Shown here piece after piece: positions 10,335 to 22,523 of a stretch of DNA of 22,632 nucleotides. The position numbers and the translations under genes are program-made. The stretch comes from an uncultured Bdellovibrio sp. (GTDB lineage: Bacteria > Bdellovibrionota > Bdellovibrionia > Bdellovibrionales > Bdellovibrionaceae): contig CAWVRN010000043.1 of assembly GCA_963932905.1 (NCBI GenBank), forward strand, positions 1 through 22,632. The letters run 5' to 3'. Numbering within the stretch: position 1 is the first letter of the stretch; each line of letters starts with the position of its first letter. The notes beneath the pieces are model-generated. The model did no database searches. It saw only the letters and a program-made list of their open reading frames with translations, and was not told the DNA's origin.

Positions 10335-10369
10335 AACAGCGCCGAAGTTCCGGCGCTGTTTGGCTTTTT
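10335..10369. terminator. Intrinsic terminator between convergent genes
   Basis: AACAGCGCCG-aagttc-CGGCGCTGTT perfect 10-bp stem followed by TGGCTTTTT. Confidence 0.8.
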
Positions 10370-10372
10370 ACT

Positions 10373-10804
10373 TTAGTAAGTTTCGCCTTTTTTAAGGCGA
10401 TCGCGGAATTCTGCGGAGAGTGCACTAGCTTGATATCCAAAAGTTAAGGCTTTTTGTACTGTTTCTATTAAATCGAACGGCTGAATCGGTTTGTTTAAAT
10501 AGTCAAAGTGACTATAAGCCACAGCTTCACATAAATTTCTATTATCTAAAGAACCAGTCAGCATAACTACAGGAATTTTAAATTCATTCAGTTCTAGAAA
10601 TTTAAGTAATTCAAGTCCTGTCATTTCGGGCATATTGATATCGGTGATTACCAAGTCCGGGCTGTTTTTTGAAATTTGGTCGAGGGCGAGTTTGCCATTG
10701 GCAAATGTTAAAATATCTAGCTTCAAAGAAGATAAGATATCCACAACAGTATCTAATATCCACTGGTCGTCATCACATACAAAGACGGTTTTTGGTCGAG
10801 ACAT
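10373..10804 (-). CDS. Single-domain response regulator (receiver only)
   Basis: VFVCDDD, PDLVITDINMPEMTG (phosphoacceptor D), MLTG and YLNKP motifs, with no output domain. ATG at 10804 follows AAGGGG; the ORF track extends to 10852. Confidence 0.92.
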   Translation of the reverse strand: MSRPKTVFVCDDDQWILDTVVDILSSLKLDILTFANGKLALDQISKNSPDLVITDINMPEMTGLELLKFLELNEFKIPVVMLTGSLDNRNLCEAVAYSHFDYLNKPIQPFDLIETVQKALTFGYQASALSAEFRDRLKKGETY

Positions 10805-11019
10805 TCCCATTCCCCTTATACAACATCGTAGCGAATGTTCTTTCGGCAACAAAAGTGAAATATTAAACAGTTTCTTTACAACTATGTCTCATATCAATAC
10901 GTTCAGTGTATGTTTTGCTGAATCGAACAATCAAGTACTCCAGTTTGATACAAAGCTGAATCAACTGAATCAATTTAGTCCTTTGTACCTCAAGAAAAAC
11001 GGAAACAAAATTCTTTAAT

Positions 11020-11037
11020 GGTAAGTAAATACTTACC
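11020..11037. promoter_or_regulatory. Perfect 8-2-8 palindrome (candidate operator) upstream of the histidine kinase
   Basis: GGTAAGTA-AA-TACTTACC, ending 43 nt before the ATG at 11081. Confidence 0.5.
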
Positions 11038-11080
11038 GATATGTTTAGTGGCGGGGGAGTTCACCGTTGATGGAGACCAA

Positions 11081-12478
11081 ATGCAATCATTTATCATGAC
11101 AACGTTTGTAATTATTATGGCGTTTTCACTGATCAATCTATTAATTAGTCTCTCTATATATGCATCCTCTCGACGCCCACTCTACGCTCGCACTGGTTTA
11201 TTCTGGTTTACTCTTATTATTAACTTTTTTATTCAATCTCAGGCTCAAGAAGGCGAATTTTTAATTATTTTAGGTGTGGGTTTTTCTCTTGTCCCATTGA
11301 ACTTTCTGGCCTATGCGTGCTTATTTTTTTCCGGTGTTGCTTATCCAGGTCGGATACTTGTGCCTCTTTCAATTTTCTCTTTAATAGTGACACTTGCATT
11401 AAAAGATTTGCCCATTTCCTTTACCCTGAAAGCGCTTCCATTCTCTATAGCGACGGCCGTTCCGTTGCTTTATACTGTTTATATTTATTTGTTTAAAAAA
11501 CGTGAACGTACTACGAAGCTTATGTATGTAAACGCCGTGGTTTTATCATTGGTTTCTGTTCATTGTTTTAATTTTGCATTTTTTAGAATGGAGCCTGAGG
11601 CGCAGCTTTGGGGTTGGCCCGTCGCGTATGGACTATACCAAATTCTAGCTATGCTGATACCGGCTATGACATTAGAGTTCTACCATGATGAAGAACAGAG
11701 TCGGTTAAAGATGGAAGTTGAGAAGCGTACTAAAGAACTTGAAATTAAGAATCAAGATTTAAATACCCTAGCGAAAGAAAATCAAATGCTACTGAATATT
11801 TTGGTTCATGATATTTCAAATCCAATTCAGGTCATTATGGGGTTTGGAAATAAACTGAGTCCACAAAACCTCCCACAAGATATGCATAAAGGTCACGATA
11901 GATTTAAACGGGCTTTGGAGTCGATGTATGAAACTCTGAGAACAGTCCGAGAATATCACGGAGCTAAATTAGGAAAAATTATTCCGACATTGAAGATCGT
12001 TTCGATCGTTGAGCCAATAATGGAATGTATTTCTTTATACGAAGACAAGATTGAAGAAAAAAAAATTAAGCTAATTTTAGATAAAGAAAATGGAAAAAAT
12101 ATTCTATTGAAGACCGATGCTTCCTGGATAAAAAATCAAATATTCGCTAATATTATTTCTAATGCAATTAAATTCTCCCCCGTGGGCGGAGTGATCTTGA
12201 TTACATTTAGTAAAATGGACGAGTCGGTAAAAATCCGAGTACGCGACCACGGTGTCGGTATATCAAGCGAATTGAAGGAGTATATTTTTTCTGCCACAAA
12301 AGCGACGACTAAGCTTGGAACATCCGGCGAAAAGGGAATTGGATTGGGTATGCCGATTGTTAAAGAATATGTGGATCGTTTGGGAGGAAAAATAGAAATA
12401 TTGAATTTGGAGCCCGGAGAAAAAGGAACATGCTTCGAACTCGAGTTCAAAATCTATGAAGAAAGCAAAGCTGCCTGA
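11081..12478 (+). CDS. Membrane sensor histidine kinase (~7 TM input, HisKA, HATPase_c)
   Basis: About seven hydrophobic segments and a coiled-coil linker. H-box LVHDISNPI, N-box NIISNAIKFS, G1 DHGVGI, G2 GIGLGM. ATG at 11081 follows GGAGA; the ORF track starts at 11018. Confidence 0.93.
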   Translation: MQSFIMTTFVIIMAFSLINLLISLSIYASSRRPLYARTGLFWFTLIINFFIQSQAQEGEFLIILGVGFSLVPLNFLAYACLFFSGVAYPGRILVPLSIFSLIVTLALKDLPISFTLKALPFSIATAVPLLYTVYIYLFKKRERTTKLMYVNAVVLSLVSVHCFNFAFFRMEPEAQLWGWPVAYGLYQILAMLIPAMTLEFYHDEEQSRLKMEVEKRTKELEIKNQDLNTLAKENQMLLNILVHDISNPIQVIMGFGNKLSPQNLPQDMHKGHDRFKRALESMYETLRTVREYHGAKLGKIIPTLKIVSIVEPIMECISLYEDKIEEKKIKLILDKENGKNILLKTDASWIKNQIFANIISNAIKFSPVGGVILITFSKMDESVKIRVRDHGVGISSELKEYIFSATKATTKLGTSGEKGIGLGMPIVKEYVDRLGGKIEILNLEPGEKGTCFELEFKIYEESKAA

Positions 12479-13164
12479 GCCGGAGTTTGTTTTGCTTCTT
12501 TCATCTTTTTCCAGAGTTTTTTCGTAGCCTCTACTACACCTGGTAGCGGACTTAGCTGCGAGGAATCCCGAGTCAAATAACAGAAATCCACGGGCACATT
12601 ATATGCGTTAGTTTCTGAAATTTTAATGGCGCCATGCCTGTAGAAGCTTTGAAAGAAACTCTTGTCTTTTCTGATATACCCAATCAGGTTTTCTAGTCCA
12701 CTCTCCCAAAAGCGCATCATAGCTAACGAAAATAATAAGTCCGGTATTGGAATATCGGTATCTTTAGTTCGCCAGTTTTCGTGAACGGTCATGTATGTTA
12801 AAACCATGACTTCCTTAAAGTTGTTATTTCTAAGGTGCTCAATCGTTTCTTTCGGATAATTTTTGAAATACGAATGACCAACTATTGAGTCTCTAGAAAT
12901 ATCAAAACGATTTGCAAAGAAAAGGGCCACTGGTTCTTGATCTGAAAAAAGTGCTATTACTTCTCGATCTAAAAAATCATCTGCTGATAGGATACCGTTT
13001 TTATCGACACCTAAACTAGAAAAAGTGGCTGACCAGCTTTTATGCCAAAAGTAAAAGGCTTTTTCGCAAAGGTCTAAATGTTCTGGCATGGGATTGCGAG
13101 TGTTAATTAAATGAAGAGATAGATTAGATGTTTCTTTTATAGAAGATATTTTATTTGTTTCCAT
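12454..13164 (-). CDS. Hypothetical protein, probable GNAT-fold acyltransferase (LuxI/FeeM-like architecture)
   Basis: ATG at 13164 follows AAGGAGG. EVMVLTYMTVHENWR resembles GNAT beta4/motif A, followed by a helix, LIGYIR and FYRHGA (GNAT motif-B-like). Its 3' end overlaps the kinase 3' end by 25 bp. Confidence 0.6.
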   Translation of the reverse strand: METNKISSIKETSNLSLHLINTRNPMPEHLDLCEKAFYFWHKSWSATFSSLGVDKNGILSADDFLDREVIALFSDQEPVALFFANRFDISRDSIVGHSYFKNYPKETIEHLRNNNFKEVMVLTYMTVHENWRTKDTDIPIPDLLFSLAMMRFWESGLENLIGYIRKDKSFFQSFYRHGAIKISETNAYNVPVDFCYLTRDSSQLSPLPGVVEATKKLWKKMKEAKQTPAQAALLSS

Positions 13165-13215
13165 CAGGCCTCCTTCGTTCATCTTGGTAGTCACGATTTA
13201 TAATTTAACTCTTAT

Positions 13216-13854
13216 TCATGCGTTTAAATCTGGACCAATTGTAGTTTGAACGGAATCAGCGCATGCGTTGATCATATGCGCATAGGATTTAGCGGTCTGA
13301 ATGACATTAGCCATGATAATCTCTTGAAGCTCAGGTGATAGCTGGCTTGTTAATGCGATCGCTTTTTCGGTATGATCGGGATCTTCTTCTGCATGTACCT
13401 TTAAAAACAGGCTCGCTTTTTCTCCATGAGCTTCTTTTACGGCTTCATAAAACTTAGGTAGATAGACCGATGAAAAATACTCAAGCGCAATAATATATCC
13501 CATTAGTGATAGTGGACTTTCATGTAAAATCTTATAGTATTGAGGTTCCCACAATGCTTTCGTTTCAGGCAAATGAACAAATTCATTTGGTGTCATTCCC
13601 AGTTCTTTTAGATCGCGTTCTGCTAATACTTCATGGGCGTTTTCTTCCGCGATATGCTTGATAAAACGTCTAAAATGAGGTTCCTCACTTTTTTTCAATA
13701 GCCCGGCGGCAAAAGAAAGTAGACGCGTTGAATGACAAACATAGTAGTATGATTGGGCTAAGAAATTTCCGTAAATTTTTGGATTTTTAATATCCATTTT
13801 TTGTACGGCTTTTCCCATTAATGCAATTGGCAATTGATAATATTCTGCGGTCAT
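13216..13854 (-). CDS. Heme-oxygenase-like diiron enzyme (iron-containing redox enzyme; CADD/PqqC/TenA superfamily)
   Basis: All-helical. HIAEENAHE, ALEYF and LKVHAEEDPDH supply an E,H,E,H,D,H ligand set as in CADD. AAGGAG RBS. Confidence 0.85.
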   Translation of the reverse strand: MTAEYYQLPIALMGKAVQKMDIKNPKIYGNFLAQSYYYVCHSTRLLSFAAGLLKKSEEPHFRRFIKHIAEENAHEVLAERDLKELGMTPNEFVHLPETKALWEPQYYKILHESPLSLMGYIIALEYFSSVYLPKFYEAVKEAHGEKASLFLKVHAEEDPDHTEKAIALTSQLSPELQEIIMANVIQTAKSYAHMINACADSVQTTIGPDLNA

Positions 13855-13921
13855 GCGATCTCCTTGAATAAATGCTTAATGAATGATTCAGAAAGATAAT
13901 ATTTCGAAACTGCAATTTTAC

Positions 13922-13941
13922 ACGTCAAGATTTCTTGACGT
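13922..13941. promoter_or_regulatory. 20-bp palindromic operator upstream of the diiron enzyme/acyltransferase operon
   Basis: ACGTCAAGA-TT-TCTTGACGT. A minus-strand TATTAT (-10-like) at 13901-13896 places its centre at about -42.5. Confidence 0.6.
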
Positions 13942-19794: not shown

Positions 19795-19871
19795 GGTGGG
19801 GTAGCTCAGCTGGTTAGAGCATCAGAATCATAATCTGAGGGTCGGCGGTTCAAGTCCGCCTCTCACTACCA
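19795..19871 (+). tRNA. tRNA with CAT anticodon, elongator tRNA-Met type
   Basis: Cloverleaf: acceptor GGTGGGG/TCTCACT, D arm GCTC/GAGC, anticodon arm TCAGA-ATCATAA-TCTGA, T arm GGCGG-TTCAAGT-CCGCC, ACCA end (77 nt). It lacks initiator features; Ile2 is not fully excluded. Confidence 0.96.
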
Positions 19872-21616
19872 ATTCTTAGAACCTGCAACTTTTCGATCTC
19901 CAAATTATCAGAAGGAAGACCAGAGTCAGCCGACTCCGAATCAGCGACCGTAGCTGAGGTCTTCGCACGTCTTTTGTCTGCCATTTCTACGACATTATTT
20001 TCATTTTTTAGTGACGAAATAGCTTCGGGCGTTAGGATTTCAGAATTCAATCCTTCTTTCAGTCGATACTCAATTTGCAGTCCCTTAGGAACTACAACCA
20101 CTGCAAATAATAGGTCTTTAAAGAGACTCTTACGCATCGTTACGCTGGCTTTCTTCCAGCCGCGAGTAAATTGTTCAATTCGAGTTTTAAGATCAACAAT
20201 AGAATTGTCGACGTCATCTTTATAGGACTCCTGAGACTTAAGATCTCGAAGACGAACCTCAAGCGAGCTTTGCTTGCGTCCCAATTCTTGAAGTTCTTGG
20301 GCTACAAGTTTGATGCCTTCGGAATCGGCATCCATTTCAGCTTGAATCTTAAATGTTCGGCGAATGGCGATAGTCGTTTTTTGTATCTCAGCCTGGATAG
20401 CTGCAATCTGACGTTTGATCTCTTCAGGAGCGGTTGAAACTTGCTTTCTAATATTTTCTGAAACATTTTCAAAATGTCCTGCTCTAAGTAAAATTTCTGT
20501 CAGGCGATCAACGAGACCCGTTTCGATTTCATCGGCAGAATATCTTTTTTTAGGGCATTTAATGGTATCGCCCATTTTACTGGCGTGGACGTAGTATCTA
20601 TGAACTTTGTTTTTACCATGAGCTGAAGATCCGACAAGTTTTCTGCCACACTCGCCGCAAATTAAAATTTGCGAGGCAAGAAAAACTCTTTTCACAGATG
20701 TGTCTAATCTTAAGCGCTCTTTACTTTTGCTATCTTCTAAAATTCGTTGAACATTTTTAAAAGTGTCTTCGTCAATTATTGCTGGCCACGAAGCCTTAAC
20801 GATTGAGTATTTCTGCCAAGGCTTAAGATAGCCTTCCTCTTTATCTTTATTGGCCTTATTGATTTCTTTAAGACCAATGTATGATTTATTCTGCAGGACA
20901 GAACTTAGCGATTCATACGTCCATCGACCTTCAGCAGCCAGTCGCTGTTTTTTACCTTGCCTGGCTTTCGGCGTAATTCCCATTGCCTCTAGTTCTCGAA
21001 TAGTGCGTCCCAGGGTCAGGTTTTCAGTGTAGAGTTTAAATATAGTCCGAACGCTACTAGCTTCAGCTTCATTGACCTTAAAAGTAGTTTTATTGTCATC
21101 CAATTTATCATAACCCAAGATCGCAGGTCCTCCATTTAAAAGTCCGCGAAGGGATCTAGAGTGGCAGTTAACCGCTACACGTTCTGCGGTCTGTTTTCTT
21201 TCAAATTGGGCTAGGCTAATCAATTGATACAGCATTAACTCACCGGATGGAGTGGACGTATCAAATTGTTCTTTGATCGATAGAAAACTTACGTGATAGT
21301 CATCAAATAGTTTTTTCAAGGCGCAAAAATCAGGAATATCTCGCGATAATCGAGAAAGCTCCGTCACCATGACCATATTTACTTTGCCGGACTTGATATC
21401 TCTGATCAGCCGCTGATATTGAGGTCGTTTGGTGTCACCAGCGGAATAGCCGTCATCAATATAAAAATCAACGATGTCACCCCAGTTCTTATCTTGGATA
21501 TTTTTGAACTCAACAAAAGATTTCATTCGGTGGCGCTGGTTATCAAGCGATCCCTCGATAACATTTGCCTGCTCGTCCGTGGAAACGCGTCCGTAAGCAG
21601 AAATTTTAAACTTCAT
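19850..21616 (-). CDS. Large serine recombinase (integrase)
   Basis: YGRVST catalytic Ser, DDGYSA and ELSRLSR. Recombinase domain (LGYD...WPAIIDEDTF), zinc ribbon CGECG...YYVH...C, and a coiled coil. ATG at 21616 follows GGAGA. The TGA stop lies in the tRNA T-loop on the antisense strand. Confidence 0.95.
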   Translation of the reverse strand: MKFKISAYGRVSTDEQANVIEGSLDNQRHRMKSFVEFKNIQDKNWGDIVDFYIDDGYSAGDTKRPQYQRLIRDIKSGKVNMVMVTELSRLSRDIPDFCALKKLFDDYHVSFLSIKEQFDTSTPSGELMLYQLISLAQFERKQTAERVAVNCHSRSLRGLLNGGPAILGYDKLDDNKTTFKVNEAEASSVRTIFKLYTENLTLGRTIRELEAMGITPKARQGKKQRLAAEGRWTYESLSSVLQNKSYIGLKEINKANKDKEEGYLKPWQKYSIVKASWPAIIDEDTFKNVQRILEDSKSKERLRLDTSVKRVFLASQILICGECGRKLVGSSAHGKNKVHRYYVHASKMGDTIKCPKKRYSADEIETGLVDRLTEILLRAGHFENVSENIRKQVSTAPEEIKRQIAAIQAEIQKTTIAIRRTFKIQAEMDADSEGIKLVAQELQELGRKQSSLEVRLRDLKSQESYKDDVDNSIVDLKTRIEQFTRGWKKASVTMRKSLFKDLLFAVVVVPKGLQIEYRLKEGLNSEILTPEAISSLKNENNVVEMADKRRAKTSATVADSESADSGLPSDNLEIEKLQVLRIGSERRT

Positions 21617-21637
21617 AGGTTCTCCATTTTGCAACCA

Positions 21638-21835
21638 TTAGGCAGCCTCGTTAAAAGACTCGAATTTTTTAGGTCTACCACGTTTTTGTCCGAGCAAAAC
21701 AATTTTAGCAACAAGTTCATCGATTCTCTTTGATCTAAGTTCGGCTTCTGTTGTTTCATCTTTTCGTCCTGTCATTTTAACTTCCATGTCGTCAGGATCA
21801 AGCTTTACAGCTTTTTCCAGCCGATCCACCATCAT
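21638..21835 (-). CDS. Small hypothetical protein with AT-hook-like KRGRPKK motif (candidate directionality or accessory factor)
   Basis: 65 aa. ATGA overlap with the upstream HTH gene. Ends 21 nt before the integrase ATG. Confidence 0.65.
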   Translation of the reverse strand: MMVDRLEKAVKLDPDDMEVKMTGRKDETTEAELRSKRIDELVAKIVLLGQKRGRPKKFESFNEAA

Positions 21836-22086
21836 GGTTTTTTAGTCTTCACTGACTTCTTTACTTTAGCCATGTGGTGCTTAATATCTTCAATAAACGT
21901 CATCGCTTCTTTATTAGAGAGACTATCAACATAGCTCATTACGGCTTGAACAAGTAAACTTGGCGTCCTAAATCCAGTCTCATAATGACTTATCGGTTTA
22001 TATGTTGAGACACCAAGAATTATTGATAACTCCTCTTGTGTGAGGCCGAACTTTTCACGAATCTCTTTAAACTTTGCCGGACTCAT
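21832..22086 (-). CDS. XRE-family helix-turn-helix regulator
   Basis: FKEIREKFGLTQEELSIILGVS...ISHYETGFRTP. Confidence 0.88.
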   Translation of the reverse strand: MSPAKFKEIREKFGLTQEELSIILGVSTYKPISHYETGFRTPSLLVQAVMSYVDSLSNKEAMTFIEDIKHHMAKVKKSVKTKKP

Positions 22087-22523
22087 GCCGCCTCATTTCT
22101 ATCAACAGTATCTATGATACTATCTGTTTTCAAGTTCTTTTTGACTTTTTTAGACACTCCGTTGCCACCGCCAAAGAAATGCTGTGCTAGTGCATTTTTT
22201 ATTTCTGGTGGCAGGTTTCCAGAACTTTTAGCCCTTTTTAAAACATTTTCAAGCATTGTCATCTCATCCGTACACGACATTCTTAGCTGATGAATCACGT
22301 CATCGGTTATATTCGATTTAAACCAATCAAAAATAAAATTTATGACATCAAGTTTAGTAGCGCGGCCAGCTTCAAATCCATCATTGACCCGCTCTAGAAC
22401 CTCTGAGGCGATCTTTTCAGCATCCTTAGATATGACAACCCTTGTGATATTTTCATCCCTAGCACTTACTATGCTAGCACCAGATTCTACTATTTTATTT
22501 GCCTCTTCCTTTTTGTTCTCCAT
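22083..22523 (-). CDS. Hypothetical protein of the integrative element
   Basis: 146-aa ORF with a strong GAGGAGGT RBS and an ATGA overlap with the HTH gene. Confidence 0.8.
   Translation of the reverse strand: MENKKEEANKIVESGASIVSARDENITRVVISKDAEKIASEVLERVNDGFEAGRATKLDVINFIFDWFKSNITDDVIHQLRMSCTDEMTMLENVLKRAKSSGNLPPEIKNALAQHFFGGGNGVSKKVKKNLKTDSIIDTVDRNEAA

Follow-up and report, generated by a model that had tools for sequence, protein, structure and literature searches.

Do two enzymes and a membrane kinase that are encoded side by side in an uncultured Bdellovibrio sp. form a signalling system, in which the enzymes make a small molecule that the kinase perceives? The locus that raises this question lies on a stretch of 22,632 nucleotides (contig CAWVRN010000043.1, assembly GCA_963932905.1, positions 1 to 22,632 of the forward strand), referred to here at its full length as the window. 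It comprises a heme-oxygenase-like diiron oxidase (HDO), a protein of predicted GNAT fold, here called X, a histidine kinase whose sensor is predicted to consist of seven transmembrane helices (7TM), and a response regulator made of a receiver only. All four genes had been claimed by an earlier reading of this DNA, the original prediction, and calling of open reading frames (ORFs) recovers each of them in place. The favoured answer, to which a probability of about 0.6 is assigned, is that the pair makes a small oxidised amide sensed by the kinase, as one version of a modular signalling cassette.

In this proposal HDO and X would form a two-step pathway to a small oxidised acyl-amide signal. 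X would transfer an acyl group from a coenzyme A (CoA) or acyl carrier protein thioester to an amino acid or amine, and the HDO would then, or first, desaturate or oxidatively decarboxylate the substrate. The adjacent seven-helix kinase would bind the signal in the membrane and relay it to the receiver-only regulator. A different molecule would result whenever the cassette, or its transferase or oxidase alone, is exchanged, and signals would thereby become specific to lineages.

The two enzymes and the membrane kinase

Protein X has no meaningful Pfam match, its sequence profile retrieved none of the PDB sequences at an E value of 10, and a search of plasmids gave no match. The family comprises 569 clusters at 50% identity (E up to 0.001); the closest named relative, 85% identical, belongs to the record of Bdellovibrio sp. 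28-41-41, in which the closest relative of the sensor (91%) occupies the adjacent locus tag. A structure model of X built from 147 sequences has a predicted local distance difference test score (pLDDT) of 95.1. Foldseek places FeeM (2g0b; rank 1, E 7.5e-7), BjaI and EsaI in the top rows for this model. A wide structural search returns RpaI first (Z 15.5, root-mean-square deviation (rmsd) 3.2, 190 residues aligned), with MesI, LasI and TofI also among the rows and FeeM at Z 12.9 (rmsd 3.4, 171 aligned), and the Atlas model of X falls in the same LuxI/FeeM/GNAT structural neighbourhood. The GNAT fold expected for this ORF is thus borne out by the model, and its closest relatives in predicted structure are of the LuxI/FeeM type.

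The family profiles tell a different story. PF00765 (Autoind_synth) matches 0 of the 147 X members at E 0.05, and it has no match in the window's own genome; control genomes likewise gave none. PF21926 does not match the window protein and finds five of the 147 members weakly (best E 0.0012). Because of these results X is placed in neither the LuxI nor the FeeM family: judged from its model it folds like a LuxI/FeeM acyl-amide synthase, yet by profile it belongs to neither. The S-adenosylmethionine (SAM) chemistry of LuxI relies on a conserved Arg/Glu/Asp network; the conserved residues of X are W40, W44, D62, F64, Y99, R132, R165 and G178. The window's genome also encodes a separate FeeM-domain protein that scores above the Pfam cut-off (L173:1339-2592, on G000:C7) and whose C-terminal extension resembles PilZ on visual inspection. 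Profile comparison of X with this protein was not significant (0.8%).

The HDO scores 53.7 bits against PF14518, for which the curated cut-off is 28.9. All 73 aligned sequences, drawn from 85 full-length neighbours and including the window's, carry E71, H74, E125, H154, D158 and H161 without exception. These six residues match the E-H-E-H-(D/E)-H dimetal ligand motif of HDOs given in PMC11363339, and the enzyme therefore carries the full six-ligand diiron motif of three histidines and three carboxylates. In a profile search the nearest solved relatives are 3dde, which is uncharacterised (E 3.6e-20), and MboA (9ypi, E 1.4e-8); UndA, BesC, SznF and CADD are absent at E 0.01. According to PMC13185094, MboA makes an alkyne via iterative desaturation of a peptide side chain, and a 2026 review counts about a dozen validated HDOs with mostly fatty or amino acids as substrates (PMC13108848). 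Which reaction the window's enzyme catalyses cannot be told from its sequence alone.

The kinase carries H, N, G1 and G2 boxes and no receiver domain. Its gene probably starts at 11081 rather than at 11018, because a GGAG lies upstream of the ATG at 11081 and the relatives are mostly 455–485 amino acids (aa) long. A model of the sensor built from 55 sequences consists of seven helices followed by a coiled coil (mean pLDDT 96.8), in agreement with the seven-helix membrane sensor proposed at the outset; a hydropathy scan of the region finds four segments at a strict and six at a loose threshold. No Pfam family is common to the 55 members and no PDB sequence matches the sensor. Its fold rows include G-protein-coupled receptors (GPCRs), rhodopsins and AdipoR2 (Z 13.3) at an overall Z of 11–14, a range that helical bundles reach without kinship, and Foldseek gives nothing at E 0.001. 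Polar residues N20, W43, H162 and R170 are conserved in the membrane part and, in the model, could line a pocket.

The acidic pocket, phosphoacceptor Asp, Thr and Lys of the receiver can be read from its sequence, and the protein would be the cognate partner of the kinase. In G400, a genome of the window's genus, an 83% identical ORF, cut shorter, stands in the receiver's place. The window's genome holds a further 7TM kinase, a paralogue followed by a receiver-only gene and with no synthase nearby (L002, G000:C7:30018-31782), which is a candidate listener for foreign signals.

Neighbourhoods and exchange of parts across the phylum

Of 401 genomes surveyed in the phylum, 128 contain X, and in the window's family 48 of 53 do, a conservative count in that the search model missed the second X copy of the window's own genome. 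Around 166 matches 100 regions were fetched; five lacked a called X, which leaves 97 X genes in 95 loci. An oxidase lies within 3 kb, the distance used throughout, of 96 of these: an HDO at 82, a desaturase-like protein without HDO at 10 and a VAO/PCMH-type protein that binds flavin adenine dinucleotide at four. The last X gene, with none of the three oxidase types, adjoins an acyl-CoA-dehydrogenase-like gene. In five cases the partners are fused, X to HDO in P0013, P0116, P0155 and L061 and X to the flavoprotein in L118.

The receptor side is more varied. A PAS-like protein of 160–360 aa stands near 72 of the 97 X genes and a 7TM sensor near 12, and no X gene has both. The former has no Pfam match and is put near PAS domains by the Atlas (score 0.95); a small XRE gene often accompanies it (52 of 97 X genes). 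On these neighbourhoods the soluble PAS-like protein is the commoner receptor candidate for pairs of X and an oxidase. The signal-cassette interpretation originally proposed survives in part: the predicted GNAT fold and the linkage of enzymes to sensors across the phylum stand, with the refinements that the 7TM kinase is the less common receptor candidate and that the product may be other than an acyl amide at some loci. In the window's own genome both arrangements occur, as there are two X–HDO pairs, one beside the 7TM kinase of the window and the other, on C33, beside the genome's only member of the PAS-like family. At this second locus (L001, G000:C33:1-5700) the order is X, HDO and a response regulator of sigma-54 type, accompanied by the PAS-like protein and by XRE genes in divergent orientation.

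Viewed from the sensor, the family has 69 matches in 54 of the 401 genomes, of which 55, in 54 loci, were examined. An HDO or X is close by in 24 of the 54, and in 12 of 42 after removal of the 12 loci that seeded the model; the chance that a member of the family falls that near a random position of the window's genome is 0.35%. A merely accidental neighbourhood was considered and ruled out: 12% of random positions have some kinase within this distance, but 0.4% have a member of this sensor family. The survey thus upholds the expectation that homologous enzyme pairs are linked to sensors in other genomes. In a quick tree of sensors, the group of 23 rows that holds the window has 18 linked rows, eight of them seeds. 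Among 23 named loci found with an alignment of sensor-linked X, a query biased toward such X, an HDO is present in 21 and a sensor in 14. The record named Bacteriovorax sp. DB6_IX (NZ_AUNJ01000379.1, L191), from a culturable organism, shows the same order of genes as the window. No LuxR-type receptor was detected in the window region or among 74 + 76 proteins scanned, a subset of the neighbours.

Several loci depart from the usual plan. At L052:7362-9083 and L105:2783-4388 the 7TM sensor lacks a kinase domain and faces, in divergent orientation, a gene for a 290–315-aa XRE-domain protein; X and HDO are adjacent, and the arrangement may represent a one-component variant. In four syntenic loci (L130, L139, L141, L144) the gene ahead of the 7TM kinase encodes an aromatic amino acid hydroxylase, which may hint at an aromatic substrate; two of these loci have X–HDO and two lack it. 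At L151, L154 and L155 the kinase converges on an unnamed 244-aa protein whose His/Glu motifs look HDO-like by eye; it has no Pfam match and gave a non-significant 2% against the HDO profile, so these loci were counted as solo. An unnamed 241-aa protein directly upstream of the kinase at L167:5208-5930 is perhaps another synthase family (X profile comparison 28%, not significant). L205:272-3076 (G267:C49) has a more distant HDO, then a desaturase-like gene, converging on a weakly FeeM-like fusion protein. L046 and L048 carry two tandem X–HDO–PAS cassettes, each preceded by a CoA-ligase-like gene and one with the HDO in opposite orientation.

Divergence of the cassette greatly exceeds that of its flanks at four fixed chromosomal sites. 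Between L107 and L129 its identity is 61–69% against 96–99% in the flanks (one adjoining gene 86%), and between L166 and L171 it is 21–41% against 81–98% (one gene between the kinases 66%). L044 and L084 share 28% in X and 36% in HDO within flanks of 82–99%; in L075 and L115 an HDO is swapped for a desaturase and the PAS-like proteins are 45% identical. At a fifth fixed site X and the PAS-like protein share 22–27% between flanks of 39–90%. No such excess was seen at the gcv-linked and c36-linked sites or between L161 and L165.

Exchange is also visible within the window's genus. The flanks in G400 are the same and its kinase and HDO are 73% and 64% identical to the window's, but a SAM methyltransferase takes the place of X. 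The HDO of G280 is coupled to another partner, an ORF with weak likeness to GNAT/FeeM that lies close to the end of a contig; the HDO and sensor contigs of this genome have no end overlap, and the locus was therefore counted as solo. For the window, HDO and sensor have the same nearest relatives (L134, L137), and the two also agree in G280, whereas the X genes nearest to the window's own stand in PAS-linked loci. Since nearest relatives are shared by HDO and sensor and not by X, these two appear as the stable core in this genus while the transferase is exchanged: as far as sequence comparison goes, they travel together, with X replaced by a methyltransferase or another GNAT-like protein, a pattern newly seen here. 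With both enzyme slots exchangeable, not every cassette need make an acyl amide. Across 20 linked loci the identities of sensor and HDO correlate with a Spearman coefficient of 0.45, and the nearest neighbour is the same as the sensor's for HDO in 10 and for X in seven.

As to the product, FeeG is presumably a member of the VAO family. An enamide-like or otherwise unsaturated amide is favoured by analogy, because an oxidative decarboxylase is known from each of the HDO, desaturase-like and VAO-type families (UndA, UndB and FeeG, respectively). The respective papers describe such activity for UndA (PMC11363339), for UndB (PMC11204201) and for the flavin oxidases FeeG/CndG, with FeeG-type enzymes turning N-acyl tyrosine into enamides (PMC11959600). 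All three folds perform other chemistry too, and an enamide proper is held to be less likely than not.

A number of observations weigh against a cassette in which X and HDO feed the kinase. Neither receptor candidate is near 13 of the 97 X genes and a receiver is near just 21; no synthase is near 30 of the 54 7TM loci, the paralogue of the window's own genome included, and none of four Myxococcota loci shows either receptor family. The identities of sensor and X correlate weakly over the linked loci (Spearman 0.21). General GNATs reach Z 14.8–13.5 against the X model, within about 1–2 Z of RpaI, and the substrate can therefore not be told from the fold. The G400 genome (97% complete) yielded no X, and the methyltransferase that it has where X stands fits poorly with a strict route of acylation followed by decarboxylation. 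Moreover, the family models were built from the same loci that they were used to survey, and related genomes are not independent.

These points leave room for an effector metabolite, serving competition, prey handling or metal binding, with a sensor that regulates the enzymes on an outside cue and not on their product. Characterised HDOs serve mostly natural-product biosynthesis, as stated in PMC13108848, and MboA, the nearest characterised solved HDO, acts in an antimetabolite pathway (PMC13185094); the frequency of solo 7TM kinases and the accessory methyltransferases, CoA ligases and hydrolases at some loci point the same way. An effector is nonetheless held to be unlikely, given that the sensor diverges along with the enzymes at fixed sites, that two unrelated receptor candidates alternate without overlap, that both families are rare per genome and that a transporter is no constant neighbour. 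The want of a conserved exporter would in turn suit a messenger or lipid that stays inside the cell or in its membrane and signals the metabolic or oxygen state of one cell rather than density, as would the soluble nature of the commoner receptor candidate, the redox character of all three oxidase types and a 7TM bundle that could bind a lipid inside the membrane, AdipoR2 being among its top rows. Such a messenger is judged improbable: the swapping of alleles at fixed sites among close relatives makes better sense if other cells read the signal, and small acyl amides are able to pass through membranes. More improbable still is that X is a highly diverged LuxI that makes an acyl-homoserine lactone (AHL) from SAM, with an oxidase tailoring the acyl chain. 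Its appeal lies in RpaI as best wide structural match, in the LuxI-type enzymes further down the rows and in desaturase-like and acyl-CoA-dehydrogenase-like partners that could tailor such chains. It is opposed by the silence of PF00765 over the whole family, by the comparison of X with the TraI profile (probability 0.4%, not significant), in whose weak alignment the RLL and ESSRF stretches of TraI face non-matching residues, and by the lack of a LuxR-type receptor among the neighbours scanned.

The reading of the locus as a signalling cassette invites a broader one, put forward tentatively at somewhat less than an even chance: that the Bdellovibrionota, which are reported to be without LuxI-type synthases, carry a phylum-wide modular chemical language. 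Its transferase slot would be filled by X, another GNAT or a methyltransferase, its oxidase slot by an HDO, a desaturase-like protein or a flavoprotein, and its receptor slot by the GPCR-shaped 7TM kinase or the soluble PAS-like protein. Swapping between close relatives would create private signals, and solo 7TM kinases would listen to other lineages. Whether predatory bacteria signal to one another can now be put to a direct test with no more than two small enzymes and a single kinase. Were the cassette to signal, a new HDO reaction and a new bacterial family of 7TM ligand sensors would also be added to those described.

Layout and regulatory DNA of the window

The coordinates of the locus are collected below. 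Measurement on the sequence confirms the gap of 51 nt from the HDO to X and the convergence of X with the kinase, whose ends overlap by 25 bp.

Features of the cassette and its borders in the window
Feature	Position	Strand	Basis or remark
Terminator-like hairpin	10335..10360	.	closes the receiver gene and a convergent DUF4360 gene
Receiver ORF	10373-10852	-	ORF list; start probably 10804 or 10810 (own sequence and relative)
Receiver-only response regulator	10373..10810	-	PF00072 Response_reg, E 1.5e-24
Inverted repeat, 8-bp arms	11020..11037	.	precedes the probable kinase start by about 45-60 nt
Kinase ORF	11018-12478	+	HATPase_c, E 1.8e-19; probable gene 11081..12478
Protein X, 236 aa from ATG 13164	12454..13164	-	GNAT-fold family by predicted structure
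HDO, 212 aa	13216..13854	-	Haem_oxygenas_2 PF14518, E 2.9e-14
20-bp inverted repeat, 9-bp arms	13922..13941	.	68-87 nt upstream of the HDO start; candidate operator/promoter element

The palindromes noted in both promoter regions exist; they are only partly conserved and lend little support to the proposed interpretation. With the kinase gene probably starting at 11081, the first of them lies upstream of it. In 500 shuffles of the 273-nt stretch concerned, arms of 7 bp were reached in 21% and arms of 9 bp in 1.4%; the second repeat was equalled in 1% of 500. Conservation was judged on one relative, G400, which has a different repeat with 6-bp arms at the place aligned to the first and preserves the inner part and one arm of the second. 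A strict sigma-54 consensus precedes one of 109 synthase operons, and sigma-70-like sites are at chance level (9 against 10.0).

One RNA run contained 7% of sampled words and yielded a 233-nt contig (depth 2.3) covering 13090-13322 across the HDO–X junction; this is too weak as evidence of expression and could derive from DNA. At the right end of the window (19795-22523) a large serine recombinase gene is overlapped at its 3' end by a tRNA-Met (19795-19871); an XRE gene and a small ORF come next, and the group marks the edge of an integrated element. That the cassette is part of this element was ruled out, its housekeeping flanks being syntenic in G400. Elsewhere (1812-2942), adjoining a PHB-depolymerase-like esterase, the window encodes a secreted protein of 376 aa that contains Gly-Pro-Leu-Gly repeats and matches no Pfam family.

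Relation to known systems

No description of a system of HDO, X and sensor was found in a literature search whose coverage excluded most subscription journals and supplements, and the accessible part of PMC8461301 holds nothing on a Bdellovibrio synthase. X emerges as a fold-level relative of LuxI and FeeM that escapes profile searches; roughly one in three sampled genomes has it, and it comes with receptor candidates of its own. With the LuxI-type AHL synthases (RpaI 6wn0, BjaI 5w8a, EsaI 1kzf, LasI 1ro5) it shares the predicted GNAT fold and a similar length, but its identity to them is 6–12%, Autoind_synth does not match its 147 members, it has an obligate oxidase partner and no LuxR-type neighbour was seen. 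FeeM, which with FeeG/CndG/HyeB stands for enamide formation, is the top Foldseek row for X, and the four X genes paired with a VAO/PCMH-type flavoprotein, placed by family and not by comparison with FeeG itself, recall this pathway; the usual partner of X, however, is an HDO. Clusters of the fee type are not known to be linked to receptors. Within the HDO family (UndA, BesC, SznF, CADD, MboA) the window's enzyme is at home by its PF14518 score and its complete ligand motif, whereas it belongs to a separate subfamily.

The pherotype cassettes agr and comQXP of Bacillota are peptide systems, and the X–HDO cassette is likened to them by its divergence pattern: synthase and receptor diverge together at a fixed locus between conserved flanks, as in the four site pairs described above. 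The nearest parallel in layout is offered by LuxM/LuxN, CqsA/CqsS, LqsA/LqsS and the methyltransferase-based PhcB/PhcS, quorum-sensing systems of a synthase and a membrane kinase, in which, as proposed here, the neighbours of a small-molecule synthase are a response regulator and a histidine kinase with several membrane passes. The enzyme families of the window differ from theirs, and at most loci a soluble PAS-like candidate takes the place of a kinase. LuxN/CqsS/LqsS-type receptors are hybrid kinases with a fused receiver, whereas the window's kinase is not a hybrid; its sensor matches no Pfam family and no PDB sequence. By analogy, the locus would most likely work like LuxM/LuxN or CqsA/CqsS but with undescribed families of synthase and receptor.

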